Shown one piece after another: positions 14,833 through 48,279 of a DNA stretch of 64,000 nucleotides (positions are counted from its first letter, which is position 1; the number at the start of each line of letters is the position of its first letter). The stretch spans positions 546,121 through 610,120 of the forward strand of contig CAVRKB010000009.1 in the NCBI GenBank assembly GCA_963721545.1, read 5' to 3'. The translations under genes were made by a program, and so were the position numbers. The stretch is from an uncultured Chloroflexia bacterium (GTDB taxonomy: Bacteria > Chloroflexota > Limnocylindria > Limnocylindrales > CSP1-4). The notes beneath the pieces are model-generated. The model saw only the letters and a list, made by a program, of their open reading frames with translations. It searched no databases and was not told where the DNA came from.

Positions 14833-14924
14833 TGAACCGGACCTTAGCAGAACACCAGTCCGCTGTCACACTGCGGCCAGAACCGCTGGACAACCGCCAT
14901 CAGGAAGGAAGAAGGGAGACCACG

Positions 14925-15050
14925 ATGGAGCAGTTTCTCGTTCTCACGATCATCGTCTTCGGACTCACGATCTTCGGCGCTCTTGCCGTCGCGGTCGGTG
15001 CCGACTCTCGCGACACGATCGCGGACGACTGGAGTCGACGCTGGGCCTGA
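14925..15050 (+). CDS. Small single-pass membrane protein, 41 aa
   Basis: The sequence MEQFLVLTIIVFGLTIFGALAVAVGADSRDTIADDWSRRWA is preceded by GGAAGAAGGGAGA. It is the inner Met of ORF 14832..15050 and is followed by a strong hairpin. It lies divergent from the MocR gene. Confidence 0.5.
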   Translation: MEQFLVLTIIVFGLTIFGALAVAVGADSRDTIADDWSRRWA

Positions 15051-15164: not shown

Positions 15165-15917
15165 ATGATGCGATCGCTCGCCGCGCTCCTGCTCCTGCTG
15201 ACGCTTGCCGCCTGTTCCGGCGCTGCCTCGACTGCGCCGCCGTCGGCCGGTCCAACCCCGGCCCCGACCACGATCGCGACGGTCGAGGATGCCGCTGCGC
15301 GGGTCATCGAGGTGTACCCGGCGTTCGAGGGCATCGGCCCGAAGGACCCGAACATCATCGGCGGCTGCTGCTGGTGGGAGGGCACGGAGACCGGCGACGG
15401 GTTCACGGTCACGTTCGAGGTTGGCTGGGGCGACTGCCTGTCCGGCTGCATCGACCGCCACCGGTGGACGTATGCGGTCAGCAGCGACGGGGCCGTGACG
15501 CTCATCGAAGAGAGCGGGTCGCCGGTCCCGTCCGGGTTGCCGGGCGCCGGCGGCGGAACGGGCGGCGGCACCAGACGGGTCCGGCGGCGCCGGGGCGGCG
15601 GGATTCCCCGGGCGGCACCGGCATCCAGGGCCGCGCCCTGGCCGGCCCGACGTGCCCGGTCGTGTCGGACAACGACCCGTCGTGCGATGACCGCCCGCTG
15701 GCCGGCGTCACGATCATCGTCCTGACCGCGAACGGCACGGAGGCTGCTCGAGCCACAACCGATGGGAACGGCGCGTTCGCCTTCTCGCTGCCGCCCGGCC
15801 CCTACACGCTCGAGCCGGGACCAGCCGAAGGGATCCTGCGCGGGTCGGGCCGATCCCGGTGGTCGTCGGCGACGCGGTCGTGACCGTCGACGTCCCGTAC
15901 GACACCGGGATCCGCTG
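15165..15917 (+). CDS. Lipoprotein with C-terminal carboxypeptidase-regulatory-like domain; frame-disrupted
   Basis: Lipobox: MMRSLAALLLLLTLAAC|S. The N-terminal domain reads VIEVYPAFEGIGPKDPNIIGGCCWWEGTETGDGFTVTFEVGWGDCLSGCIDRHRWTYAVSSDG. The C-terminal piece is in the frame of ORF 15374.. (LAGVTIIVLTANGTEAARATTDGNGAFAFSLPPGPYTLEP). My translation of the end is PIPVVVGDAVVTVDVPYDTGIR*. At least 2 frame changes occur. Confidence 0.7.
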
Positions 15918-15948: not shown

Positions 15949-15976
15949 GAGCCGCGTCCCCGAAGGGACGCGGCTC
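15949..15976. terminator. Perfect 12-bp stem-loop between convergent genes (bidirectional terminator candidate)
   Basis: The hairpin is GAGCCGCGTCCC-CGAA-GGGACGCGGCTC. It lies downstream of the + strand lipoprotein gene and 90 nt downstream of the minus-strand TadG-like gene A. Its stem core is identical to that of the hairpin at 18704-18731. Confidence 0.6.
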
Positions 15977-16065
15977 AATGAGTTCGGCTGAGCCAGACGG
16001 ACGGTTTCGGCGCTCGGAATAATCTCCGTGCAGCCGCGTCTAACCCAACGAGCTACGGGGAAGGT

Positions 16066-17084
16066 CTAATTGATGAGCTTGATGCTGAAGGTGCCGGTCG
16101 GGAGGACCGAGTCGCCGCCGGTCGGCGAGACGACGAGGTCTTCGCCGTTGTAGCCGGACAGGAAGTAGCCGCGGATGATCTTGTCGGGAGCGCCTTCGAC
16201 GTCGACGAGGCGGAAGTAGGCGAGACCGACCATCTGGCCGTCGTCGGTCGACGATCGGAACGGGGAATGCCTCGCCGATGTGATCGGCCAGGGACGGCGT
16301 CGCCGCTGTTGCTGTCGAGCAGCGTGGTGTGCGTTCCCGCGTTCAGCGGGCCGATGTCGTCGTTGAGGAAGACGGTCGTCGCGTTGCCGCCGCCGTCGAT
16401 GATGTCGCGGACGTCGTTGGAGTCACCGTTGCACGCGTTCGGGCTTCCGTTCGCGCAGAAGACCGTCCAGTTGAACTGCGTCGCGTCCTGGGGCACGTCC
16501 TCGTTGCCGGTGCCGGGCAGCTGGTAGATCTCGGGCGTGCAGCCGCCGGTCTCCTCGTCGCAGACCGCCTGGGGAACGCCTTGGCGTTGAACAGCAGCGG
16601 CATCAGGCCGATCGCGCCGTTCGGCGTGTCGCTCGACCTGGGCCGTTGCCGTCACGGACACGTCCCAGGTCGGCATCCCGAGGAGCGCCGCGAAGTTGTT
16701 CTGATGCTTGCCGGTGAGGTCGACCTCGGACGTTCGTCGCGGTCGATGAGTTGGCAATGACGACCTCGACGACCGCGCCATCGACGCCGTGGGTGTAGCC
16801 GTTTGCGGTCGCGATCGACCGGGCCGCGGCGTCGGCGGCGGCGTTCTTGGTGGCCATGTCGCCGGGCGTGTTCAGGTAGGCGGTCGCGCCGGCCATCGGC
16901 CGCGAGGTCGGCGACGCGCCTGCTCGTCCCGGCGCTGGGCGTAGGCCGCGCCACCGTCGAGCACGATGCCCGATCACGCCGACGATCACGAAGATCGCGA
17001 GCACGAACAGGATGAGGATCTGGCCGCGTTCGCCGCGGCGTGCGCGGATCGGGACGACGCATGGCGCGAGGTCTCCTTGCTCAT
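16066..17084 (-). CDS. TadG-like pseudopilin / Flp-pilus assembly TadE/G-like protein (module 1, gene A); frame-disrupted
   Basis: The N-terminal hydrophobic segment is RRGERGQILILFVLAIFVIVGVIG (frame of ORF 16603..17226). The middle reads FNWTVFCANGSPNACNGDSNDVRDIIDGGGNATTVFLNDDIGPLNAGTHTTLLDSNSGD (ORF 16053..16781). My translation of the end is LADHIGEAFPVPIVD/DDGQMVGLAYFRLVDVEGAPDKIIRGYFLSGYNGEDLVVSPTGGDSVLPTGTFSIKLIN*. At least 4 frame changes occur. The start (ATG at 17084) is tentative. Confidence 0.65.
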
Positions 17085-17558
17085 GGGATCTGCATCCGTG
17101 CTGGTGGACTCGAACGTGTGGGTGCCGAAGGCGCTCACGAGCGGCGTGACTGGCGCGAAGTCGGCGGTCACGCGGACGCGGATGAAGTCGACGCCGGCGG
17201 TTGCAGTCGCTCGTCCTGGTGACCACGCGGGTTCTGGACGACGTCGTACATGTCGACGCAGTCGATGTCGGTTGCCGGGTCGATCGTCAGGCCGGGGATG
17301 AGGCCTTCGCTGCGTGGCGATCACGTCGGTGGTCTCGGTCGCTCAGCCCGAGCGTCCCGGAGCCGTCGGTCAGGTGGACGATGGTCGCCCGGGTGATGTC
17401 GCGGGCCGCCTCGGACGTGCCGTTCATCATGTAGATGCCGCGACCGAGGTCGACGATCGCCCATCAGCAGGATGAGGAACGGGATGACGGCGAGGGCGAA
17501 CTCGACCAGCGCCTGGCCGTCGCGCGCGATCCGTGCTGCGCATTGCGTGCGTCCTCAT
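17081..17558 (-). CDS. TadE-like pseudopilin (module 1, gene B); frame-disrupted
   Basis: My translation from the ATG at 17558 reads MRTHAMRSTDRAR, then ARDGQALVEFALAVIPFLILLMG.IVDLGRGIYMMNGTSEAARDITRA after a frame change. This is the TadE signature (GQ..VEFAL..P.ll.l..g..d.g). The C-terminal piece is GVDFIRVRVTADFAPVTPLVSAFGTHTFESTS (ORF 16986..17324). The ATG overlaps the stop of gene C (TGATGA). Confidence 0.7.
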
Positions 17559-18553
17559 CACGGCGGCCGGTAGACGAGGTCGATCACGGTGGTCAGCGGG
17601 ATGCACTCGGTGTGGTCCGGGTACTGGCCCTGGATCTTGTCCTTCTGGCCGCTCGATCACGTTCGTCACGGTCGGCATCGGGAAGCCCGGCGTCCGTGGA
17701 TGGCGAGCTGGGCCGCGCTCAGCGATCTGGCCGATGACATTCGGCGGGAAGACGCAGCCCGGGGGCGAGGTCGACGTCGCAGTCGGCAGCGGACCGCCGG
17801 CGTCGTTGACCGTGATGTACCGGCCTTCTGCTCGACGTCGACGTCGGTCAGGTTGATGACCGTCAGCGTGACCGTGTAGGTGCCGGCCGTCGTGTAGGTG
17901 TAGGTCGGGTTCGGGTCCTCGAGTCGACGATGCCGTCACCGTTGAAGTCCCACTGGAAGTCGGTCGGGTCGCCGGTCGAGAGGCTCGAGTCGAAGGTGAC
18001 CGGGACGCCGGTGTCGACGGTCGTCGGGCTGGCCGTGAACTCGGCGATCGGGCCGGGCGGCGGGGTCATCGCGTTGATGTCCGGGAAGTACTCGATCTGC
18101 GCGGTCGCGCTCGAGGCGAGATGGAGGTTCTGGCCGCCGAAGACGAAGGACAGGAGCGGCGTGACAGGCGGAACTCGCCGCGGACGTTGACGGTGACCGT
18201 CGCGCCCGCTGCCTCGGGGCAGCCGACCGGGTTGCAGGCCATGTCGATGTCGGTCGGGCGTGATCGCGACCATCGAGCCCTTCGACTCGTTCTGGACCCG
18301 GCAGACCACGCGGTTGATCGCCTGGTCGCAGGGCTGGTGGTAGTCGTGAGCTCTGCGGCGTCTCGGCCGCCTGGAACGCGCCCTCGCGCGCGGCGTTGTT
18401 CAGGGTGATGTTCGCGTAGAAGACGCGGCCGAGGTCGAGCGTCGCGGCGAGGAACACGAGGAAGATCGGCAGGATGAGCGCGAACTCGACGAAGCTCTGG
18501 CCGAGCGTCCTCTGGCGGTGGTGCCTGCGCATCCGAGCGACGAGACGGAACAT
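17558..18553 (-). CDS. TadE-like N-terminus fused to a PKD domain and a C-terminal PASTA-like segment (module 1, gene C); frame-disrupted
   Basis: The N-terminus reads MFRLVARMRRHHRQRTLGQSFVEFALILPIFLVFLAATLDLGRVFYANITLNNAAREGAFQAAE, then ...VTVNVRGEFRLVTPLLSFVFGGQNLHLASSATAQIEYF. The PKD domain reads PIAEFTASPTTVDTGVPVTFDSSLSTGDPTDFQWDFNGDGIVDS/EDPNPTYTYTTAGTYTVTLTVINL. The tail reads CVFPPNVIGQIAE...PTVTNVIERPEGQD...IPLTTVIDLVYRPP*. At least 5 frame changes occur. Confidence 0.7.
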
Positions 18554-18703
18554 CGATGACCCCATGGAGGGAGGATTGGTCCCGGCATGCTCGGCCGGGC
18601 ACCTTGCACGATCCCTTGAATCGGTGCGCGGCTGCATAGCCCGAAGGGGGTGACGCGTCCTGCCGATCGTCCGGTCCACGCACGAACCGGCCCGAGAATC
18701 AGA

Positions 18704-18731
18704 GGAGCCGCGTCCTTGCGGACGCGGCTCC
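18704..18731. terminator. Perfect 12-bp stem-loop after TadG-like gene D
   Basis: The hairpin is GGAGCCGCGTCC-TTGC-GGACGCGGCTCC, 26 nt downstream (minus strand) of the TAA of gene D. It separates the two pseudopilin modules. Confidence 0.6.
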
Positions 18732-18756
18732 TGCAGGCCCCGAGACCTCGCGGAAG

Positions 18757-19989
18757 TTACTTGATGAGCTGGACTCCCGAGCTGGTTGGTCGTGCTCGGC
18801 GTGACGGCGCCGAGGTCGATGTCGCCGGGACCGGGCAGTGCGACCACCCACCAGCCCTTGAAACAGCCGTTGGCTCCGTTGCCGCTGACGAACGGCGCGC
18901 CGGGCAGCTTGTCGCACTCCTTCCGGTCGCTGCCGTTGATGTAGAAGGCATCGACTTTGAAGCTCGCGAACGACGGGATGTGGTACCAGGTGTTACGCCG
19001 ACGCCGATGTCTCCCGCGTCGCAGTCCTGGAGCGACGTGCCGGCCGGCTGTTCCTTGCAGGTCCCGTCGAAGAGCGGGATCTGCGACGATGTCGTCGTGG
19101 TAGGCATTCAGCGCGTTCTGGATCTCGGGCCCGCCCTGTCCGACGCCGCCAGCGAACGTCTGCACCCAGGTCTGGAACGGTAGTCCCGTGATGCACGGCG
19201 CGAGAATTGCGTCCTTGAACTGCCCGAGCAAGTTCCGTCGGTGGTCGCGCCGATCGCCGTGGAGAGATCGAGCCAACCCACCGACCCTGCGGAACCGCCA
19301 CCGATGTCGTTGTTCTGGTTCTTGCAGACGCGGGACGATGGCCTCGTTTGCCGGTGTCGTGTCGGCGTCGCCGAGGTAGGGCCAGTCCCCGAGCCCGGAA
19401 GTAGGACCTTGCCGTTGTTATCGCAGTCGGAGACTTCGAACGGAACGGTGATCGGGAACAGCCCGCACGGCATGCCTTCGCAGGCAAAGGGTCGTCACGA
19501 CGCCCGTGACTGCCGTCGCCGTGGTCGACGCGGTGAAGTTCGAGATGCCCAGACGCGTTGGCAAAGTACGTACCGAACTCCGCGATCCGTGTTCGCCTGG
19601 ACGCCTTGCGCCCCCGTCGGGAATCCGGAGCCAACGGCGCCGAGCACGTCGCCCTTGAAGTCCGTGTACGACGCGGAGGTGATCTCGACGTTGTTGTTCA
19701 CCGCCGCACCGTAGACCGCCTTGCAGACCTCGAAGTCCCATGGGTCGGCTGGCGCCGTCGGGCATGGCCCGACGGCGCCGGTGTTGGAGTTTCCGGCCAT
19801 CAGGTACTGGGCGATGACGACCGTCCCAGCCTCGGCGACGGCATCGGCGCCGTTCTGCGTGGCGCGCTGCTGCGCAAGGGCATTTCCGCCGTCGACTACG
19901 ACGGCGACCCCGCCGATGATCGCGATCAGGCCGACCGCGAAGATGACAAGGATCTGCCCGGGCTGCCGGCGCTTCGACCTAGTGTTCAC
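18757..19989 (-). CDS. TadG-like pseudopilin / TadE/G-like protein (module 2, gene D); frame-disrupted
   Basis: A GTG start at 19989 is preceded by GAGGGA. The N-terminus reads MNTRSKRRQPGQILVIFAVGLIAIIGGVAVVVDGGNALAQQRATQNGADAVAEAG (ORF 19495..19989). Later pieces are CGLFPITVPFEVSDCDNNGKVLLPGSG and WYHIPSFASFKVDAFYINGSDRKECDKLPGAPFVSGNGANGCFKGWWVVALPGPGDIDLG. It ends ...TTNQLG/VQLIK*. At least 5 frame changes occur. Confidence 0.65.
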
Positions 19990-20000
19990 GTTCTAGTCCC

Positions 20001-20492
20001 TCAACAGTGGGCCAGGGGCGCTGGCGTTGGATTGGAGCAAACTCGTTCGATTGGGATCGTCGACTTCGAACTGACGTCGATCGGGCCGATGATCTGGCCG
20101 ATGATCGGTGTCAGCGCTTCGAACCGGCCGCTGACCTCGACGACCGCAAGGCAGCCGATCTTGAGGGTCGTGCACGTGCCCGTGTCCGTAGGGTTTCGAT
20201 ACGACACCGCCACGTCCGACTCCTCGACGGCGGCGCCAGTGCCCGACGCCATCGCACAGCCCGTGGACCACGCCGTCGCGGACGTCGTGTCACACGTTGT
20301 CGTTCCGGCGGTGGACTGGTTGACGATCGCGACGCGGGCGCCACTTCGCGCCGAGTTGGCGAGCGCGTTGTAGGTGACGATCAGGCGCCCCGCGTCGATG
20401 ATCCCGAAGAGGATCAACAGGAAGACCGGCAGGACGAGCGCGAACTCGACCAGCCCTTGGCCGCGGCGGCCGCGATTCCGATGCCGTCTCAT
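20001..20492 (-). CDS. TadE-like pseudopilin, 163 aa, intact (module 2, gene E)
   Basis: This is the inner Met of ORF 20001..20993. It reads MRRHRNRGRRGQGLVEFALVLPVFLLILFGIIDAGRLIVTYNALANSARSGARVAIV...VVEVSGRFEALTPIIGQIIGPIDVSSKSTIPIE. The ATG overlaps the TGA of gene F (ATGA at 20489-20492). Confidence 0.8.
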   Translation of the reverse strand: MRRHRNRGRRGQGLVEFALVLPVFLLILFGIIDAGRLIVTYNALANSARSGARVAIVNQSTAGTTTCDTTSATAWSTGCAMASGTGAAVEESDVAVSYRNPTDTGTCTTLKIGCLAVVEVSGRFEALTPIIGQIIGPIDVSSKSTIPIERVCSNPTPAPLAHC

Positions 20493-21821
20493 TCGTATTC
20501 CAGCGTGATGTCGTAGTTGCAGACGAAGTTCTGACCCTGCTTGGTCGGATCGAGGAGCTGGCCGCCAGGGCGGCTCTGCGACACGATATTCGCCGACTGG
20601 GCTGGGCGGCTTGCGGATTGCCTTGTCCGCTGCTGCCCACCTTGTGGTACTTGATCTGGCCCGTGAAGTCCGCCCCGCCCCAGGTCGTCTGTGCTTGTGC
20701 GGTCGAGGTGTTCGCGAAGTTGGGCACCAGGCAGCCGACCTTGACGTAGTTAGTGCGCGTTTGTGGCGTTCCGCCGGTCGGGTCCGTGACGGTGAGGGTG
20801 ACCTCGTAGATGCCGATGGCGTCGTACGAGTGCTGTGGGCTGGCTTGCGTCGACGCGGGCGACCCGTCGCCGAAGTTCCACGAGTAGGTGGTCCCGTTCG
20901 TCGATATGTTCGTGAAGTCGACGACGAGGGGTCTCGTCCCCCTGATCGGGGTGCCGGTCGGACCTCCGCCTTCGACGTTCGGGAGACTGCCAACTGGCGT
21001 GCCGTAGAAGCCGGCGACCGGCGGGGGAGTCGTCACAGGCCGACGGTGACGGTCCTCGGTCCGGGTTGCCGTCCCCATCGTGTTCCGTACCGTGAGCGTG
21101 ACGTTGAAGGTGAACGAGCTGTTGTACGGGTGGGTCGGCGGCGTGAACACGAAGTCGTTGGTCGTCGAATCACCCCACGACCACTCGTAGGTGTCTCCGT
21201 TCGTGGACTGATTGATCACGTCGACCGAGACCGGCGACGGTGCCCGTGACGTTCCCGGATCCGTTGATCGTGCCTCCGACGACGCCCGTGAAAATGAAGT
21301 CGGCGACCGGGGATCCAGGCGGCGGGAGCGTCGTCGATCCACCAATGTTCGCGATCGCGCCGGTTCTGACCGGGAACTGCGAGCTCGCAGACATCGGCAG
21401 GGAGCCGCCGAAGAAGCCGCTTAGGATCGGCGTCAGCAGCGTGAAATTGCACGTCATGTTCGAGACACTCACGCCACTCAGGCCGGACCCATTCGGGAAG
21501 GTCGGGATTGGTGGGTTGTGGCCTCCGGCGTCCGGCTGGAGCTCGCAATTCAGCGCGTCGGCTTCGTGGGCAACGATCGCGTCGTAGGTCGTCGTGTTGG
21601 GCGTTCCGGTGAAGTTGCCGGGAGCCGTCGCACCGAAGTTTGCAGCGACGCGCGTGGTGTTCGTAAGGGTCACGTAGCTCATGAACAACCGGCCGAAGTC
21701 GATCACGATGAGGAGCATCAGGATCATCACCGGCAGGATCAGGGCGAACTCGACCAGGCCCTGGGCCCGGCGAGCGGTCGCGGTGACGGACGCGACGGAA
21801 CAATCTCGTGAGCAAGGTCAT
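20489..21821 (-). CDS. TadE-like N-terminus fused to two PKD domains and a PASTA-like tail (module 2, gene F); frame-disrupted
   Basis: The N-terminus reads ARRAQGLVEFALILPVMMILMLLIVIDFGRLFMSYVTLTNTTRVAANFG...CNFTLLTPILSGFFGGSLPMSASSQFPV (ORF 21170..21730 frame). PKD 1 reads VSVDVINQSTNGDTYEWSWGDSTT...HPYNSSFTFNVTLTVRNTMG. PKD 2 reads PLVVDFTNISTNGTTYSWNFGDGSPASTQASPQHSYDAIGIYEVTLTVTDPTGG (ORF 20290..21345). My translation of the tail is CLVPNFANTSTAQAQTTWGGADFTGQI.../SANIVSQSRPGGQLLDPTKQGQNFVCNYDITLEYE*. At least 4 frame changes occur. The ATG at 21821 is tentative. Confidence 0.7.
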
Positions 21822-22009
21822 GTGGTTAACCCCGGCGGATGGTCTGGTGACGGGATAGTCCCTTCGTACGGGCGCATGTTGCCCTGCCCACCTTGCAGCG
21901 CACCTTGCGCTGGGACGTCGTGTGGACGACACGCAACACTCGTCGCCGGGACCTCGAGTGGACGAAGAGGCTATGGCCTTCGCGAGGCCCCGCGCGTAGG
22001 TTCAACGCC

Positions 22010-22302: not shown

Positions 22303-23884
22303 TCAGGAATCTTCGGGCGGCTCTCCCGGGAGGTAGACGCTGAACGACGCGCCGCGGCCGGCGACGGTCGGTTCGAGGACGAGGTCGCCGTCCATCGCCC
22401 GGCACAGCTCGCGCGAGACGTACAGCCCGAGCCCGCTGCCGCCGCTGCCCTCGTCGCCGTCCGTCTCCCGGCCCCGGACGAACCGCCCGAACAGCCGCGC
22501 CCGATCGGCCTCGGCGACGCCCGGGCCGCCGTCGGTGATCGTCAGCCGGAGACGCTTGCGACGGCTCGTCGAGACCGACCTCGACGGCGATCGGCGAGCG
22601 GTTGCCGTACTTGACCGCGTTGTCGAGCAGCGCCCAGAGGACCTGGTCGAGCTGGTCGGCGTCGGCGATCGGCCAGCCAGCCCTGCGACGTCGTCCTCGA
22701 CGGTGAGCGCGACGTCGGCCGCGGCGAGCGCCTCCCACGCCCGCCTGACGCGCGGCGCCGAGCGCGACGACCTCGATCCGCGGATGCAGCGCGCCCGACT
22801 CGAGGCGGGTGACCGTCAACAGCTGGCGGACCATCCGGCTGCAGCCGCTCCGACTGCTCGGCGATGATGTCGAGCCGGCGGTCCGGGCGGGTCGGTCTGG
22901 AGCTGGTGGGCGTAGGCGCGGATGCTCGTCAGCGGCGTCTGGAGGTTGTGGCTGACGCCGCGGAGGAAGTCGTCCTTGGCGGCGTCGAGCTCGAGGAGCT
23001 GCGTGTTCTGGGCCTCGACCCGGGCGAACAGCTGGGCGTTCCGGATCGCGACCGCGATCTCGCTCGCGAACAGCTCGAGGAGGTCCTGGTCGGCGCGCTC
23101 CCAGCATGCGCGTCGCCGGCAGCTGCCCGACCAGCACGCCGAGCTCCTCCTCGCCGGTCTGGAGGACGCGCCCGGACCGGCAGCGGCTCGCCGGGGATCC
23201 GCTCCTCGAGCGGGATGTCCCGGGGATCGACGAGGAGGATGTCGCAGTCGATCATGCCGAACGCCGCCTTGGCGTCGGTGGCGGCGCGGCCGGCCACGAA
23301 CAGCGCGCCGTCCCGCGGCGACGCCCGCTCGATCGCGGCGAGGATGCTGCCGAGCTCCCGGTTCCGCCGCTCGAGGTCGACGGCGAGGCGGTTGTGGCTC
23401 TCGGCGAGTCGCGCCAGCTCGTCGTCGCCCGGGACCTCGATCGGCGTCGAGAGGTCGCCGGCGGACACCCGATCGACGGCCGCGGCGATCGCCCGGAGCG
23501 GCCCGATCAGGTCGGCCGCGAGGAGATAGGCGAGCAGGATCGCCGAGCAGCGCGGCGATCACGATCGTGAGGAGCAGCGCGCGCGCCGAGGGTCTCCGGG
23601 TCGGTGATGATGTCGCCCGCCACGATGGCGACGATCCCGAACCCGGCCAGCGGCAGGATCGCCGCCGCGACGAGCCCGAGCGTCAGCCGGGCCCGGAACG
23701 ACAGCCGGATGCCCAGCGAGATGCCCGTCCCGTCGTCGTCGTCCGCGTCCGGGAGATCGTCGATCGGCGCCTCACCGAGGGCCGGCCTTCTCCTGCTCGG
23801 CCCGCTCGAGGGCGGCGAGGCGATCGGCGATGGGGTGTCGCGGGCCGCCCGAACGGTCCGGGGCCGCGGGGGGCACCGCGCCAT
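22303..23884 (-). CDS. Sensor histidine kinase (TM-HAMP-GAF-HisKA-HATPase); frame-disrupted
   Basis: The TM segment is ARLTLGLVAAAILPLAGFGIVAIVAG. The HAMP domain reads LRAIAAAVDRVSAGDLSTPIEVPGDDELARLAESHNRLAVDLERRNRELG. The GAF/HisKA region reads ELLELFASEIAVAIRNAQLFARVEAQNTQLLELDAAKDDFLRGVSHNLQTPLTSIRAYA. The ATPase domain reads DQLDQVLWALLDNAVKYGNRSPIAVEV, and my translation gives ...GSGLGLYVSRELCRAMDGDLVLEP...SFSVYLPGEPPEDS*. Many frame changes occur. Confidence 0.85.
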
Positions 23885-23931
23885 CCGCGGACGTGGGGGT
23901 AGCGGACGTCGCCGGCGCCGTCGGCGTCGAG

Positions 23932-24667
23932 TCAGTCACCGGCTGCGTCGCCGACGCCGATCAGCCGGTAGCCGACACCGCGGACCGTCTGGAGGTGGAC
24001 CGGCTTGTTCGGGTCGACCTCGATCTTCTGGCGCAGCCGGCGCATCGTGACCCAGACGTAGGACGGGTCGGCGTCCTCGGTGTCCGCCCAGCCGCGGGCG
24101 AGGAGCGTCTCGGTCGTGACCGTCTGGCCGAGGTTCGCGGCGAGGGCGTAGAGCAGCCGCGACTCGGTCGGGGTGAGCTGGACGATCTCGCCACCGACCG
24201 TCGCCTCTCGGCGGTGGAGGTCGAGGGTCAGGTCCGGACCGAGGACGAGGCTCTGGCGCGGGACCTTGTCGCCGAGCCGCCGCAGGACGCGATTGATCCG
24301 GGCCCGCAGCTCCGGGTAGTGGTAGGGCTTGGTGACGTAGTCCTCGGCGACCTCCTCGAGCAGGTCGGCCTTGGAGTCGCCGGCATCGATCGCCGAGAGG
24401 ACGATGATCGGCAGGTCGGCCTGGTTCTTGATCTCGCGCGCGAGGGTCAGGCCGTCCATGCGCGGCATCATCATGTCGATGATCAGGAGGTCCGGCCAGC
24501 GACGTCCGAAGCCTGCGAAGCGCCTCGTCGCCGTCGCGGGCCGTCTGGATCTCGTAGCCGTCGGCGCGGAGCTGGTCGGCCAGGGCGACGAGCTGGTTCG
24601 GGTCGTCGTCGACGAGGAGGAGCCGCGGCGCCGCGTCGCCGTAGCCCGAGGGACCGCCGCTCAGCAT
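23932..24667 (-). CDS. OmpR/PhoB-type response regulator; one frame change near 24495-24520
   Basis: The receiver domain reads PRLLLVDDDPNQLVALADQLRADGYEIQTARDGDEAL...DLLIIDMMMPRMDGLTLAREIKNQADLPIIVLSAIDAGDSKADLLEEVAEDYVTKPYHYPEL. The winged helix reads LTPTESRLLYALAANLGQTVTTETLLARGW...SYVWVTMRRLRQKIE...LQTVRGVGYRL. It sits immediately upstream of the kinase. Confidence 0.9.
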
Positions 24668-39853: not shown

Positions 39854-40201
39854 ACCCAGACCCGCTTCGATGCCTCGTTCGCCGCGCTGTCCAACGCCAC
39901 CCGACGTGGCGTTCTGGAGCAGCTCGGGCGTGCAGACGCTTCGGTCACGGATCTTGCCGAGACATTCCGCATGACCCTCACGGGCATGAAGAAGCACGTC
40001 GGCGTCCTGGAGCAGGCGGGGCTAGTCACCACGGAGAAGGTCGGGCGCGTGCGGACCTGCAAGCTCGGCCCGCGCCGACTGGAGGAGGAAGCTGCCTGGA
40101 TCGAGAGATACCGCCAGCTCTGGAACGCACGCTTCGACGAGCTGGACAAGGTTGTCGAGGAATTGAAACGGAAGGAGAAGGTCGATGGACGCAACAAGTG
40201 A
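39842..40201 (+). CDS. ArsR/SmtB-family transcriptional regulator, intact
   Basis: Corresponds to ORF 39842..40201. It reads FAALSNATRRGVLEQLGRADASVTDLAETFRMTLTGMKKHVGVLEQAGLVTTEKVGRVRTCKL, which is an ArsR-type wHTH. Confidence 0.85.
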   Translation: MVQYTQTRFDASFAALSNATRRGVLEQLGRADASVTDLAETFRMTLTGMKKHVGVLEQAGLVTTEKVGRVRTCKLGPRRLEEEAAWIERYRQLWNARFDELDKVVEELKRKEKVDGRNK

Positions 40202-40699
40202 GAGTGAGGTTGCCCCCATGAAGAACCGTACGACGGTGGAGCGGAAGTCCGAGCGTGAGCTCGTCGTCACGCGAACGTTCAACGGCCCGGCGCGCCTCGT
40301 GTTCGAGGCGTGGACCAAGCCCGAGCTGTTCAGGCAGTGGTGGGTGCCGAAGTCGATGGGAATGTCCCTGCTTTCCTGCGAAATGGATGTTCGTGTCGGG
40401 GGCAGGTACCGTTTGGAGTTCGCACACGGGGACTCACGGGCGGCGTTCTTCGGCACGTACAACGAAGTAGCACCGCACTCGCGCCTCGTCTGGACCAATG
40501 AGGAAAGTGACGAGGGTTCCGTCACGACCGTGACCTTCGCGGAAGAAGGCGGCAAGACGTTGCTGGCCATGCACGAGCTGTATCCCTCGAAGGAGGCGCT
40601 CGAGCCGCCGGCAGCGGGGCGGCGGATGCGATGGGAGAGACGTTCGAGCAACTGGACGAGCTTCTCGACACCCTGGGCGCGAGCGTGGGACGGTCATGA
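40185..40699 (+). CDS. SRPBCC / Aha1-domain (activator of Hsp90 ATPase homologue-like) protein; one frame change near 40610
   Basis: It reads ERELVVTRTFNGPARLVFEAWTKPELFRQWWVPKSMGMSLLSCEMDVRVGGRYRLEFAHGDSRAAFFGTYNEVAPHSRLVWTNEE...VTTVTFAEEGGKTLLAMHELYPSKEALE. My translation of the end is ADAMGETFEQLDELLDTLGASVGRS*. Pairing with an ArsR gene is a common arrangement. Confidence 0.8.
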
Positions 40700-40814
40700 A
40701 GTCGTCGATCTCGCGTCGGCCGACTGGCTCGTCACGACGCGGAGGCAAACCCCGACGAGGTTGTCGTATCTGGCGCTGACCGGAAGGCCTCAGAGGACGG
40801 CGTTCCGTCGCGGG

Positions 40815-41913
40815 CTAGCCGATCCGGCTGACCTCCTGGTCGTCGCTGCCGCGAATGATCGACTGCTCGACTTCGAACACGAGGCGGCCGGCGTCACCGA
40901 GGGGATATCGACCGGCGATCTCCGGAATCCCTTTCATATCGCGGATCACGTCCTCCGGGACGGTGATGTGGAAGTCGTCGCTCTCGCCGTGCCATGAGAG
41001 TGACTCGCCCCGCTGAAATCCGACCGACGAGTCGCCGCCTCGGATCCAGAACGAGCGGTCATGCTCCAGCCGACCGCGGACGAGTTGACGAAGCCGCTGG
41101 ACGGCGATGGCGCCGACGTGGATCGACACCGACTCACCGTCGATCGTGATGACCAGCGTGTCGATGTTGACGCCAGTCATCGACGATCCATCGCGGGCGA
41201 TCCCGTCGGCGATCTGTTGGCGGACATTGGCGTCGTCTAGGAGCGAGGCGCGACGAACGTCCGTCACCAGCAGGGGGTTCCGCTCGCCAAGGATCTCGAC
41301 CATCCGATTCGTGTCCCACTCCACCGCCGCCTCGTACTCGTCGATCGTGACGCCGATGACCTGCACGAACGAAATTCGACCGTTCGGCGTGTCGATGGGA
41401 TCGAGTTTGGGGTCCGTCACGAAGAGGGCGGCACGGATCGCGGTGTCCTCCTTGAGGGCGATCGGCCCGTTCAGATCCGTGTGATCGCCAGGGCTGAGCA
41501 CGTTGCCCGACTCAAAGACGTAGCGGGCGAGGTTCTGCAACAGCGACCACGGCCAGGTGGGCGCTTCATCGCCCTCGGTTCGAGCGAGTCGGAAGGTCAA
41601 CTCGATGCCCCATCCGCTGACGTCCGCATCGCCGGACGTCTTCCCGTACAGCTCGCTCAATCCATAGGTCACGTAATGCCAGTGACGCGGGCCCTCTCCG
41701 GGATAGGCACTGATTCCATCAAGGGGATCCGGTCCGCCGGCACTCCATCGGACCTTCGTTCCCCAGTGCGCCGGCTCGACGCCCGGATAGAGCCGGTCCA
41801 CGGCGCGGTCGATCGCCCGCCATCCCGGAGCCGTTTCATCGAGCCGTGCCAGGTCCTCCGCGGAATGGCGGTGAGGTTTGCCGCCACCCCGCAGACGGTC
41901 GAGAAACCGCACG
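40815..41913 (-). CDS. Suppressor-of-fused (SUFU)-family domain protein, ~366 aa, intact
   Basis: This is the C-terminal third of ORF 40815..43310. It reads GPRHWHYVTYGLSELYGKTSGDADVSGWGIELTFRLARTEGDEAPTWPWSLLQNLARYVFESGNVLSPGDHTDLNGPIALKEDTAIRAALFVTDPKLDPIDTPNGRISFVQVIGVTIDEYEAA. The GTG start at 41913 is one nucleotide after the hydratase TGA. Confidence 0.75.
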
Positions 41914-41914
41914 T

Positions 41915-42719
41915 CAGTCCTCGGGCTGCCAGCCCGGCGGACCGCTTCTCGGTGAAGGCACGGAGCCCCTCCTGGGCTTCCTCGCTCACACGCTGGCGGG
42001 CGATGACCCGGGCCGTGTGCCACTTCGACGCTCCATGCCCCAGGCCGCGGACCTCGCGGACGATCGCCTTCGCCGCGCGGGCTGCCGTCGGGCCGGCCGC
42101 CAGCACGTCGCGGACGGCGGTCTCCACCGCAGGAATCGAGGGCCGCATCGCCCTCGACGACCTCGTGGACCAGCCCGATCCGCTGGGCACGGAACGCGTC
42201 GAACCGGCGACCGCCGGGGAACAGCGCGCGTGCGTTGGACTCGCCGATCTTGGAGATCACGAACGGCGAGATCACCGCCGGCAGGATCCCGAGGCGCGTC
42301 TCCGTGAAGCCGAACCGGGCGCCCGCCTCGGCGACGACGAGGTCGCTGACCGCGCACAGGCCCATCCCGCCGCCGAGCGCCGCGCCCTGGACGCGGGCAA
42401 TCACCGGCACCGGGCACGTGTCGATCGTGTCGAACATCTCGGCCATCGCCATGGCGTCCTGCTCGTTGCCGTCGACGTCGAGGGCGACCGCGGCGCGCAT
42501 CCAGTCGATGTCGGCGCCGGCGCAGAACGACGGACCCTCGCCCACGAGAACGACCGCGCGGAGCTCCGTCGGACCCTGGCGGGCGAACCCGGCGAACGTG
42601 GATCGCAGCTCGGCGATCAGCGAGGCGTTGAACGCGTTGTGAACGTCGGGGCGGGTGAGGGTGACCCTCGCGACCGCGTCGCCGGCCCCGGATCGCTCGA
42701 CCCGGAGCAGGTCGCTCAC
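41915..42719 (-). CDS. Enoyl-CoA hydratase (crotonase family; methylglutaconyl-CoA hydratase by context); about 2 frame changes
   Basis: It reads VSDLLRVERSGAGDAVARVTLTRPDVHNAFNASLIAELRSTFAGFA...LRAVVLVGEGPSFCAGADIDWM...VPVIARVQGAALGGGMGLCAVSDLVVAEAGARFGFTETRLGILPAVISPFV. It continues ...EAQEGLRAFTEKRSAG. Removing one base near 41933 gives the end WQPED*. The GTG overlaps the upstream TGA (GTGA). Confidence 0.85.
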
Positions 42720-47166: not shown

Positions 47167-47712
47167 ATGCCGAACTACCGACGCCTTGCGTCCCTTCCCG
47201 CCCTCCTCCTCATCGCCCTCCTGGTCGCCGCCTGTGCCAGCGCGCCGACCCCAGCACCGACATCCGTGCCGCCGTCCGATCAACCCACGTCGACGGGTGG
47301 TCCGGGCACGTCGCCCGTCCCGAATCCGTCGGAAGCGGTCGACGGCGTCTCGGTCACGGTCGAGACGACCGGCGGTCACTGCATCCAGGGTGCGTGCGGT
47401 GGCACGATCACGATCGAGCCCGACGGCCGCGCCCATCAGACTGCGCCCGAGCCGAAGGAGCTCGGCACGGTCCCCGTTGACTTGATGAACGCACTCGTCG
47501 TCGAGGTCCAGCAGGCCGACTTCGAGGCAATCAAGAGTCAGCCGTTCACCGACACCTGCCCGATCGCGTTCGACGGGCAGCAGTTCATCTACACGTTCTG
47601 GATCGTGACCCACTCCGAGGAGATCGACTCCTGCCAGGTCGTGGTCGACCCAGCGAATCCACTGTTCGTCGCCGTCGACGCGGCGATCGCCTCCGTCACT
47701 CCCCAACCGTAG
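47167..47712 (+). CDS. Cys-rich lipoprotein, paralogue 1, intact
   Basis: Lipobox: [23 protein letters not shown]|A. The body reads [114 protein letters not shown]. It is the tail of ORF 46621..47712. Confidence 0.7.
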
Positions 47713-47750
47713 ATCGGAACCGAGCCGGGGGATCGGGCGTCATCGGCGGA

Positions 47751-48279
47751 ATGCCAGCACGCTCGGTCTCTCGGCGCTTCGCTGTCCGGTCCCTCCCGCT
47801 GGTCGTCGTCGCCGTGATCGCGTCCGCCTGCGGCTCGACGCCAACCTCCCCGTCGCCTTCGGCGACCGACAGCCCGCCGCCTTCGGTCGTCGCCGCGACG
47901 CCGTTTGCCTTTCCGCTCCTCTCCGTCGAGACCCGCGGCGGGGAGTGCCCCCAGGATGCCTGCGGTCGGCTGATCAACATCGAGGCGGATGGCCGGATCC
48001 ATGAGGTCATCCCGCAGGACCGTGTGGTCGGGACCGTGCCGCCGGATGTGATCGAGTCGCTCCGAACGGAGATCGAACAGGCCGACTACGTCGCGATCCG
48101 CGGCCGGCCGTTCACCGGCGAATGCCCGACCGCGTTCGACGGCCAGGAGATCGTCTACACGTTCCACGTCACGACCGGCGATCGCGAAGTCGCGTCGTGC
48201 GAGGTCGACGATCGACCCGAATGATCCGCTGTTCGTCGCCGTCGAAGCGGCCATGGCCTTCGAGCAGCCGCCGGAGTGA
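47751..48279 (+). CDS. Cys-rich lipoprotein, paralogue 2; one extra base near 48210
   Basis: Lipobox: LPLVVVAVIASAC|G. The body reads LSVETRGGECPQDACGRLINIEADGRIHEVIPQDRVVGTVPPDVIESLRTEIEQADYVAIRGRPFTGECPTAFDGQEIVYTFHVTTGDREVASCEV. After frame correction it ends DIDPNDPLFVAVEAAMAFEQPPE*. It is collinear with paralogue 1, including four Cys positions. Confidence 0.7.

Follow-up and report, generated by a model that had tools for sequence, protein, structure and literature searches.

Paired TadE/TadE/TadG-type pilin triplets in an uncultured Limnocylindria bacterium as candidate tip complexes for a pilus assembled by remote machinery

A contig from an uncultured Chloroflexia bacterium (GTDB class Limnocylindria, order Limnocylindrales, CSP1-4; GenBank assembly GCA_963721545.1, contig CAVRKB010000009.1) carries six consecutive minus-strand genes whose products resemble the TadE- and TadG-type proteins of type IV pilus systems. 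The stretch analyzed here, referred to as the window, comprises 64,000 nucleotides (positions 546,121 to 610,120 of the 883-kb contig), and the six genes occupy positions 16066-21821 within it. They form two collinear triplets, F-E-D and C-B-A. In each triplet, a TadE-type prepilin fused to PKD sequence is followed by a short TadE-type prepilin and then by a large TadG-type protein (Table 1). An earlier note, made from the letters of the window, had described two such triplets on this strand, and both its coordinates and its gene junctions proved to be correct.

Table 1. Positions of the six triplet genes and of associated features in the 64-kb window (arrows mark predicted prepilin processing sites)
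Feature	Position	Strand	Description
Gene F	20489..21821	-	Modular TadE-type prepilin; leader ...RRA↓QGLVEF, pilin module, two PKD, ~85-aa Cys-bracketed C-terminal domain
Gene E	20001..20492	-	Short TadE-type prepilin, 163 aa, six conserved Cys
Gene D	18757..19989	-	TadG-type large minor pilin; leader ...RRQPG↓QILVIF, pilin module, ~210-aa Cys-rich distal domain, end ...GVQLIK
Hairpin after D	18703..18732	-	Terminator-like; perfect 13-bp stem, GCAA loop; -45.5 kcal/mol, z -3.7
Gene C	17558..18553	-	Modular TadE-type prepilin; leader ...RTLG↓QSFVEF, pilin module, one PKD, C-terminal PASTA; alternative ATG 18565
Gene B	17081..17558	-	Short TadE-type prepilin; leader ...RDG↓QALVEF; Pfam TadE 3e-9
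Gene A	16066..17084	-	TadG-type large minor pilin; leader ...GERG↓QILILF; end ...FSIKLIN
Hairpin after A	15949..15976	-	Terminator-like; 12-bp stem, UUCG loop, T-rich tail; z -3.9
OmpR-family response regulator	~23940-24649	-	Stitched translation
HAMP/HisKA histidine kinase	~22328-23900	-	Stitched translation
Small two-helix membrane open reading frame (ORF), ~70 aa	22008..22228	+	Between kinase gene and first triplet; no Pfam match
Lipoprotein	15165..15915	+	Cys-rich N-domain (CCxWEG...GWGDC..GC) + CarboxypepD_reg; far end of array

The G+C content of the window is approximately 70%, and three-frame translation together with a phase-specific plot of G+C revealed that the coding frame shifts every ~160-290 bp throughout its length. 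No long gene in the window can be read through in a single frame. This frame-hopping also affects the ara genes, an ABC transporter, pdxS/pdxT, tldD/pmbA, the methylcrotonyl-CoA carboxylase subunits, galE, and tmk. Because obvious housekeeping genes are affected to the same extent, we consider the pattern a signature of assembly errors rather than of gene decay, and the window very probably derives from an unpolished long-read metagenome-assembled genome (MAG) with frameshift errors. Its closest relatives were drawn from the ‘MFD’ nanopore long-read MAGs. Any annotation of this contig that is based on ORFs would come out fragmentary.

To read the genes, a codon-usage model was trained on the window and applied in a seven-state Viterbi segmentation (six frames plus a non-coding state), and the segments were stitched into pseudo-proteins. 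The rest of the window was annotated by eye from the stitched translations, and Pfam was run on the stretches that had received no assignment by eye. A locus from a Ca. Limnocylindrales MAG (L007, DASUFO010000056.1) served as the clean reference. This locus holds an intact F-E-D-C-B-A series with identical order and neighbors, and its products are 62-74% identical to the stitched window proteins. All six genes translate cleanly in this syntenic copy, while in the window E is the sole one of the six with an intact reading frame.

One might instead take the frame changes in the block to be real and the six genes to be decaying pseudogenes. Frame switches are indeed denser in the triplet block (~6.3 per kb) than in the rest of the window (~3.5 per kb). 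However, four true gene junctions are counted among the switches of the block, weaker codon bias inflates their number, and genes such as pdxS, tldD, the carboxylase subunits, and tmk are just as broken. Moreover, the identity of the stitched proteins to their clean orthologs extends over their full length, with the Cys residues and motifs kept. We therefore regard gene decay as highly improbable.

Pfam analysis agrees with the TadE-PKD, TadE, and TadG-like domain content that had been proposed for each triplet. The TadE matches of F, E, C, and B score 37-62 bits, compared to the curated cut-off of 22.9 bits for this family (PF07811). The stitched F protein combines a TadE match (7e-13) with two PKD stretches (PKD_4, 1e-21), and the stitched C protein likewise pairs TadE (2e-16) with PKD_4 (3e-14). 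The short E protein matches TadE at 7e-17 and has 678 homologs. Among the TadG-type proteins, D matches the Tad family (PF13400, cut-off 22.3 bits) at 3e-6 with 27.8 bits, and its orthologs are 65-78% identical to it. The window copy of A scores slightly under the cut-off (4e-4, 21.1 bits; Tad_C 2.6e-3) because a frameshift falls inside the domain, whereas its L007 ortholog passes the threshold (3.7e-8, 34 bits). The TadE and Tad matches thus persist after frame correction, both in the stitched genes and in clean orthologs, with A passing only in its clean ortholog. No vWA domain was found by Pfam in the triplet proteins. Clean orthologs are named ‘TadE/TadG family type IV pilus assembly protein’ by NCBI.

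In the reference locus, the ortholog of F (L007:8688-9998) is 62% identical, and the ATG start of F at 21821 was verified. The ortholog of B is 71% identical, and the true end of B (...RMQIP, then stop) sits in a third frame. At the C-terminus of the C ortholog there is a PASTA domain (PF03793, 1e-6, above the curated cut-off) that the earlier note had not recorded. The C family includes 467 homologs with TadE and PKD, some of which additionally carry PASTA, and a phmmer search with the C ortholog against PDB sequences returned PKD-type matches only. The Cys-bracketed domain at the C-terminus of F was also considered as a PASTA-like module, but this idea was dropped given that Pfam is empty there and that a BLASTP comparison with the PASTA domain of C is empty as well. 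The clean D ortholog has 12 Cys residues, and E and C have six each. These residues are conserved, which is consistent with disulfide-bonded extracellular proteins.

The N-termini of the four TadE-type proteins each begin with a short basic leader, which is followed by Gly at position -1 (Ala in F), Gln at +1, Glu at +5, and Phe at +6, and then by a hydrophobic helix. The processing motif reads RRG↓QGLVEF in E, and those of F (RRA↓QGLVEF), C (TLG↓QSFVEF), and B (RDG↓QALVEF) follow the same pattern. Among 27 orthologs of E, residues Q12, V15, E16, and F17 are invariant. When all six frames of the window were searched for a prepilin-type [G/A]xxxxE[F/Y] motif followed by a hydrophobic stretch, only F, E, C, and B were recovered.

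An AlphaFold2 (AF2) model of E, with a predicted local distance difference test (pLDDT) score of 88, has a 44-residue helix (residues 12-55) followed by a small beta-sheet. The model of a D ortholog (P0122, 78% identical to D; pLDDT 82) has a 52-residue helix (residues 12-63), a sheet, and more beta-rich domains. Foldseek searches of the PDB with the models of E and the D ortholog gave no significant match to a solved pilin (best E-values 0.65 and 0.39).

The earlier note had called the triplets two tandem copies of a duplicated cassette, which overstates their likeness. In BLASTP comparisons, C and F are 28% identical over ~250 residues, B and E are 40-46% identical in a region confined to the N-terminal 50-80 residues, and A versus D is empty. 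Alignment of the D family to an A ortholog with hhalign does reveal a relationship (probability 97.9%, E 4e-13), which covers only the N-terminal ~170-200 residues corresponding to the pilin module (helix and first beta-sheet; residues 8-178). The distal, C-terminal halves of A and D are unrelated. Furthermore, many relatives carry orthologs of F, E, and D that are 54-78% identical, and C, B, and A have orthologs of their own in L007 and in L037. Because pairwise identity is low or partial and the ortholog sets are separate, these comparisons indicate that the triplets are two members of an old multi-paralogue family and not the products of a recent duplication.

The gene junctions within each triplet were verified. 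F and E overlap by ATGA, C and B by TGATGA, and B and A by ATGA, while 11 nt lie between E and D, the latter of which begins with a GTG codon. Each triplet is also followed by a strong hairpin, as had been noted, and both hairpins have perfect stems of 12-13 bp. The two hairpins have an 11-nt arm (GAGCCGCGTCC) in common that is absent elsewhere in the 64 kb, and the same hairpin is present 3′ of the D ortholog in L007 (L007:11762-11787). This arm is identical even though the proteins encoded upstream are only ~30% identical or unrelated. The shared hairpin could act as a conserved terminator or in regulation. A scan for sigma-70 promoters yielded zero sites.

To place the triplets in a broader context, one genome per GTDB species was scanned with an alignment of E orthologs as the query, which gave 39 loci. 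Overall, 47 related loci were compared, of which 45 were included in the tblastn, signature, and motif searches, with flanks of 10 kb. The earlier note had suggested looking for the same arrangement in related genomes, and a unit that we term x-e-g (x, TadE plus PKD; e, short TadE; g, TadG-like) is found in each related locus of sufficient length, and in all but 3 of the 47. A locus carries from one to four or more copies, usually in tandem and at times with opposite orientations, and matches are essentially limited to Limnocylindria-type Chloroflexota.

Opposite-orientation triplets within an array occur among L001, L003, L004, L008, and L029, and in L003 the two-triplet block as a whole has, with respect to the kinase gene, the opposite orientation to that in the window. 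A search for inverted repeats or other signatures of invertible segments around the modules of the window gave only short repeats at chance level and the two terminator hairpins. Because flanking inverted repeats were not found, the differing orientations look like evolutionary rearrangement rather than programmed inversion. Two short contigs labeled ‘Actinomycetes bacterium’ (L026, DASUFV010000052.1) and ‘Mycobacterium sp.’ (L035, NZ_DASSCY010000374.1) carry Limnocylindria-type B-like and C-like genes at 47-55% identity, and these are probably binning errors.

No machinery that would be expected to assemble a pilus was found in the window or within 10 kb of the triplets in the related loci. 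The window contains no Flp candidate, because the prepilin-type motif is limited to F, E, C, and B, and no Flp-like small ORF was found by motif in the window or in the 45 related loci. Likewise, neither a T2SSE/CpaF Walker-A motif nor a signature of this family was detected in the window and the 45 related loci (678 kb scanned, window included). On the unassigned stretches of the window, Pfam found no T2SSE, T2SSF, or A24 peptidase, and instead identified a DNA ligase fragment, a SpoIIIAA/R3H ATPase, and a glycerate kinase. The contexts annotated by Pfam (L001, L004, L005, L006, L046, and L047) have zero machinery genes within 10 kb. The earlier statement that the 64-kb window is devoid of Tad/Flp machinery therefore held in the motif, signature, and Pfam checks. 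A search of the literature on Limnocylindria for pili, Tad, or Flp found nothing relevant, and the Tad machinery that has been reported belongs to other Chloroflexota (PMC7332563).

The triplets are flanked by genes that recur with them. The histidine kinase and the OmpR-family response regulator (Table 1) were sought by tblastn in the 45 loci, and the regulator was found in 23 and the kinase in 25. The regulator is mostly 71-90% identical, far above the conservation of the pilin-like proteins. Both genes flank the arrays in L001, L003-L005, L007, L046, and L047. On the basis of this gene order, the pair is a plausible candidate regulator of the triplets. The small two-helix membrane ORF occupies the corresponding position in 20 related loci. 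At the opposite end of the array, the lipoprotein gene is present in 16 related loci, and its L007 ortholog matches CarboxypepD_reg at 8.7e-8. Given its position, the lipoprotein may be part of the triplet system.

Adjoining the lipoprotein gene is an ORF for a conserved 42-aa hydrophobic peptide (M..F..LTI.V.GL..FG.LAV.VGADSRDT..DDWS), which is located at 14922-15050 (+) in the window and at L007:15441-15566 (-). This peptide is not Flp-like, as it has neither a leader nor Glu at +5.

We propose that the triplets encode heterotrimeric complexes that act as alternative tips of, or prime, a Flp/Tad pilus that is assembled by machinery encoded elsewhere, and we assign this proposal a probability of roughly 0.6. 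It fits the data because the proteins have prepilin-like N-termini with Glu at +5, because AF2 predicts pilin-like folds, because the TadG-type proteins share a module that is joined to unrelated distal domains, and because no machinery was found within 10 kb of the triplets in the 47 related loci. The earlier note had already suggested that a pilus encoded elsewhere could receive alternative tips or adhesin complexes from these genes. That suggestion remains the best-supported functional reading, although the claim of novelty made in the note does not stand and its description of the cassette as duplicated is misleading.

In the proposed mechanism, a prepilin peptidase of the Flp type would cleave the three proteins of a triplet, and the N-terminal helices of the cleaved proteins would bundle to form a heterotrimer. 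This complex would then prime assembly of, and cap, a Flp/Tad filament built by remote machinery of the tadZABC/cpaF type. At the tip, the distal domain of TadG would be displayed along with the PKD/PASTA modules, such that different triplets would give rise to tips with different binding specificities. The adjoining two-component system may control triplet expression. We infer the processing, trimer formation, tip location, and regulation by analogy with the KilLMN Tips of Myxococcus.

These Tips belong to the Kil pilus, a Tad-like system for which four paralogous kilL/kilM/kilN (TadE/TadF/TadG-like) units have been established genetically, three of them remote from the machinery (PMC12075869, Herrou et al. 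2025). They are partly redundant and prey-specific, and AlphaFold predicts a heterotrimeric spearhead with many disulfides in which a variable KilN domain is located at the tip (PMC12075869). The arrangement described here resembles the Kil Tips in its three-gene TadE/TadF/TadG units and in having several paralogous units, which in most cases are located away from the machinery for Kil and which here have no machinery detected within 10 kb in the loci examined. Both systems also have a TadG-like member that joins a conserved pilin module to a variable distal domain without a PDB homologue, and both are rich in Cys. A role as interchangeable tips is proposed in both cases, here by analogy.

There are also clear differences between the two systems. 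The Limnocylindria host is not a known predator, and nothing ties its genes to a T3SS*. The units form one tandem array of one to four or more copies beside a two-component system, whereas the Kil units are scattered, and it is the TadE-like member that bears grafted PKD/PASTA modules. Because hidden Markov models of tip1-4 of M. xanthus matched Myxococcota only (PMC12075869), it is unlikely that the triplet proteins belong to the kilL/kilM/kilN families by sequence, and the resemblance is architectural.

Several considerations weigh against a function at the tip of a pilus. Flp, prepilin peptidase, CpaF/TadA, TadB/C, and TadZ were not seen in the window or in the 10-kb flanks examined in the relatives, and a partner machine must be assumed. 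The predicted -1 residue of F is Ala rather than Gly, and the TadG-type proteins D and A do not have Glu at +5 (G↓QILVIF and G↓QILILF). Proteins of the PF13400 type usually lack Glu at that site. In addition, the pilin fold is deduced from predicted secondary structure, trimer formation and tip location are carried over from the Kil system, and the regulatory link to the two-component system derives from synteny.

The main alternative is that the triplets form surface complexes that are independent of any pilus. In this case, the TadE/TadG-like N-termini would remain uncleaved as signal anchors, and the membrane-tethered proteins would mediate adhesion or cell-wall binding via their PKD, PASTA, and Cys-rich domains under the control of the two-component system, with no filament involved. 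The lack of machinery or of a major pilin within 10 kb in the related loci or in the window is in line with this possibility, as is the fact that the Pfam TadE and Tad models span only the N-terminal hydrophobic segment. The PASTA domain in the ortholog of C can also be counted in its favor. In membrane-anchored proteins, PASTA is chiefly known for binding peptidoglycan or muropeptides. However, the aligned homologs strictly retain Glu at +5 and Phe at +6, and a simple membrane anchor would not readily account for this. The three-gene stoichiometry is fixed and equals that of tadE/tadF/tadG and of kilLMN, and related Chloroflexota have their Tad machinery apart from tadEEG (PMC7332563). We consider surface complexes of this kind to be unlikely.

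Another possibility is that the proteins are pseudopilins of some other type-IV-filament machine, such as an archaeal-type system with Epd-like or class-III-signal-peptide proteins acquired by Chloroflexota, or a short, piston-like secretion pseudopilus. F has a weak match to Class_IIIsignal in Pfam (E 0.093), and no partner machinery was found in the window or in the flanks examined. In one report, Litorilinea, which belongs to the Chloroflexota, is described as having acquired an archaeal-type filament gene cluster (PMC13319060), and we count this in favor of the same alternative. Nevertheless, the best matches, and those that exceed curated thresholds, involve the TadE and Tad families, which are bacterial. 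The triplet architecture is that of the tadE-tadE-tadG genes of Chloroflexales Tad systems (PMC7332563), and the large distal modules (PKD and Cys-rich) are better suited to being displayed at a tip than to a piston that is buried. It is quite unlikely that another type of filament machine is involved.

A bolder version of these ideas is that the arrays linked to two-component systems operate without a conventional Tad machine, or make use of one in an unexpected manner. They might then form a filament-independent surface complex or sensor-controlled, switchable tips, and the member carrying PASTA might recognize the peptidoglycan of other cells. We view this as quite unlikely. If it were true, the ‘adaptable tip’ idea would extend from predators to abundant, uncultured Chloroflexota of soil and freshwater.

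Classical tad loci have a single set of these genes, which closes the tadZABCD operon, and their TadG often includes a vWA domain. The triplets share with the canonical tadE-tadF-tadG genes of Aggregatibacter and Pseudomonas, and with the tadEEG genes of Chloroflexales, the PF07811 and PF13400 N-termini, a leader of the G↓xxxxEF type, and a gene order in which two small pseudopilins precede a large TadG. They differ in that there are multiple sets, no machinery alongside in the loci examined, and new distal domains. For three Chloroflexales genomes, the Tad genes are listed as the separate items ‘rcpC-tadZABC’, ‘tadEEG’, plus ‘flp’ (PMC7332563, Gaisin et al. 2020).

Some resemblance also exists to PilB and PilC of Streptococcus sanguinis, in which an adhesive module is likewise grafted onto a pilin (lectin or vWA there; PKD, PASTA, or Cys-rich here), and these minor pilins form a complex proposed to be located at the tip of the type IV pilus (PMC9934059). 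Unlike the present proteins, which are of the Tad (type IVc) kind and are encoded away from machinery, the S. sanguinis pilins are type IVa-like, are processed by PilD, and are encoded inside the pil locus. The modular-pilin concept is thus already known from this type IV pilus (PMC9934059).

The earlier note had regarded the arrangement as undescribed. However, the Myxococcus Tips (PMC12075869) have a similar layout, so that the present one extends an existing idea, and the Chloroflexales tadEEG genes (PMC7332563) precede it as well. What we did not find described is diverged triplets arrayed in tandem at a locus that is conserved in a class of Chloroflexota, the synteny of such an array with a two-component system, or the presence of PKD/PASTA on the TadE-type member, and we consider these aspects to be new.

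If our proposal is correct, then the ‘adaptable tip’ principle of the predatory Myxococcus Tad pilus is also used in an abundant, uncultured class of Chloroflexota. This class would have a repertoire of its own, consisting of PKD/PASTA on a TadE-type pilin, several unrelated TadG distal domains, and a dedicated kinase and regulator next door. The arrays would provide a testable system for examining how the Tad pili of monoderm-like environmental bacteria gain their binding specificity, and whether the choice of tip is regulated. For annotators, the x-e-g triplet can be recognized as such, and its presence should not be read as a sign that the tad locus is complete.

One additional feature of the TadG-like proteins could relate to their proposed location. 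A C-terminal strand is conserved in all of those inspected (...VQLIK, ...IKLIN, ...VQLIR, and ...LALVN). According to a 2026 preprint, the localization of PilC/PilY1 at the pilus tip is governed by a plug motif at its C-terminus. A connection between this motif and the C-terminal strand of the TadG-like proteins is speculative.

Finally, the composition of the triplet block and two other regions of the window deserve brief mention. The G+C content of the block (16001-22000) is 0.65-0.675, compared to 0.71-0.74 in its flanks, and its GC skew is positive. These values may reflect the Thr/Asn/Ser-rich composition of surface proteins or a different history. A second dip in G+C (0.65) at 40001-42000 coincides with an ArsR/AHSA1 pair and a SUFU-like gene. 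Elsewhere, positions 47231-48276 (+) encode two tandem paralogous Cys-containing proteins or domains without a Pfam match, each of ~150 aa, that are characterized by the motifs G.C..G.CGG.I.IE.DGR and F.G.CP.AFDGQ.

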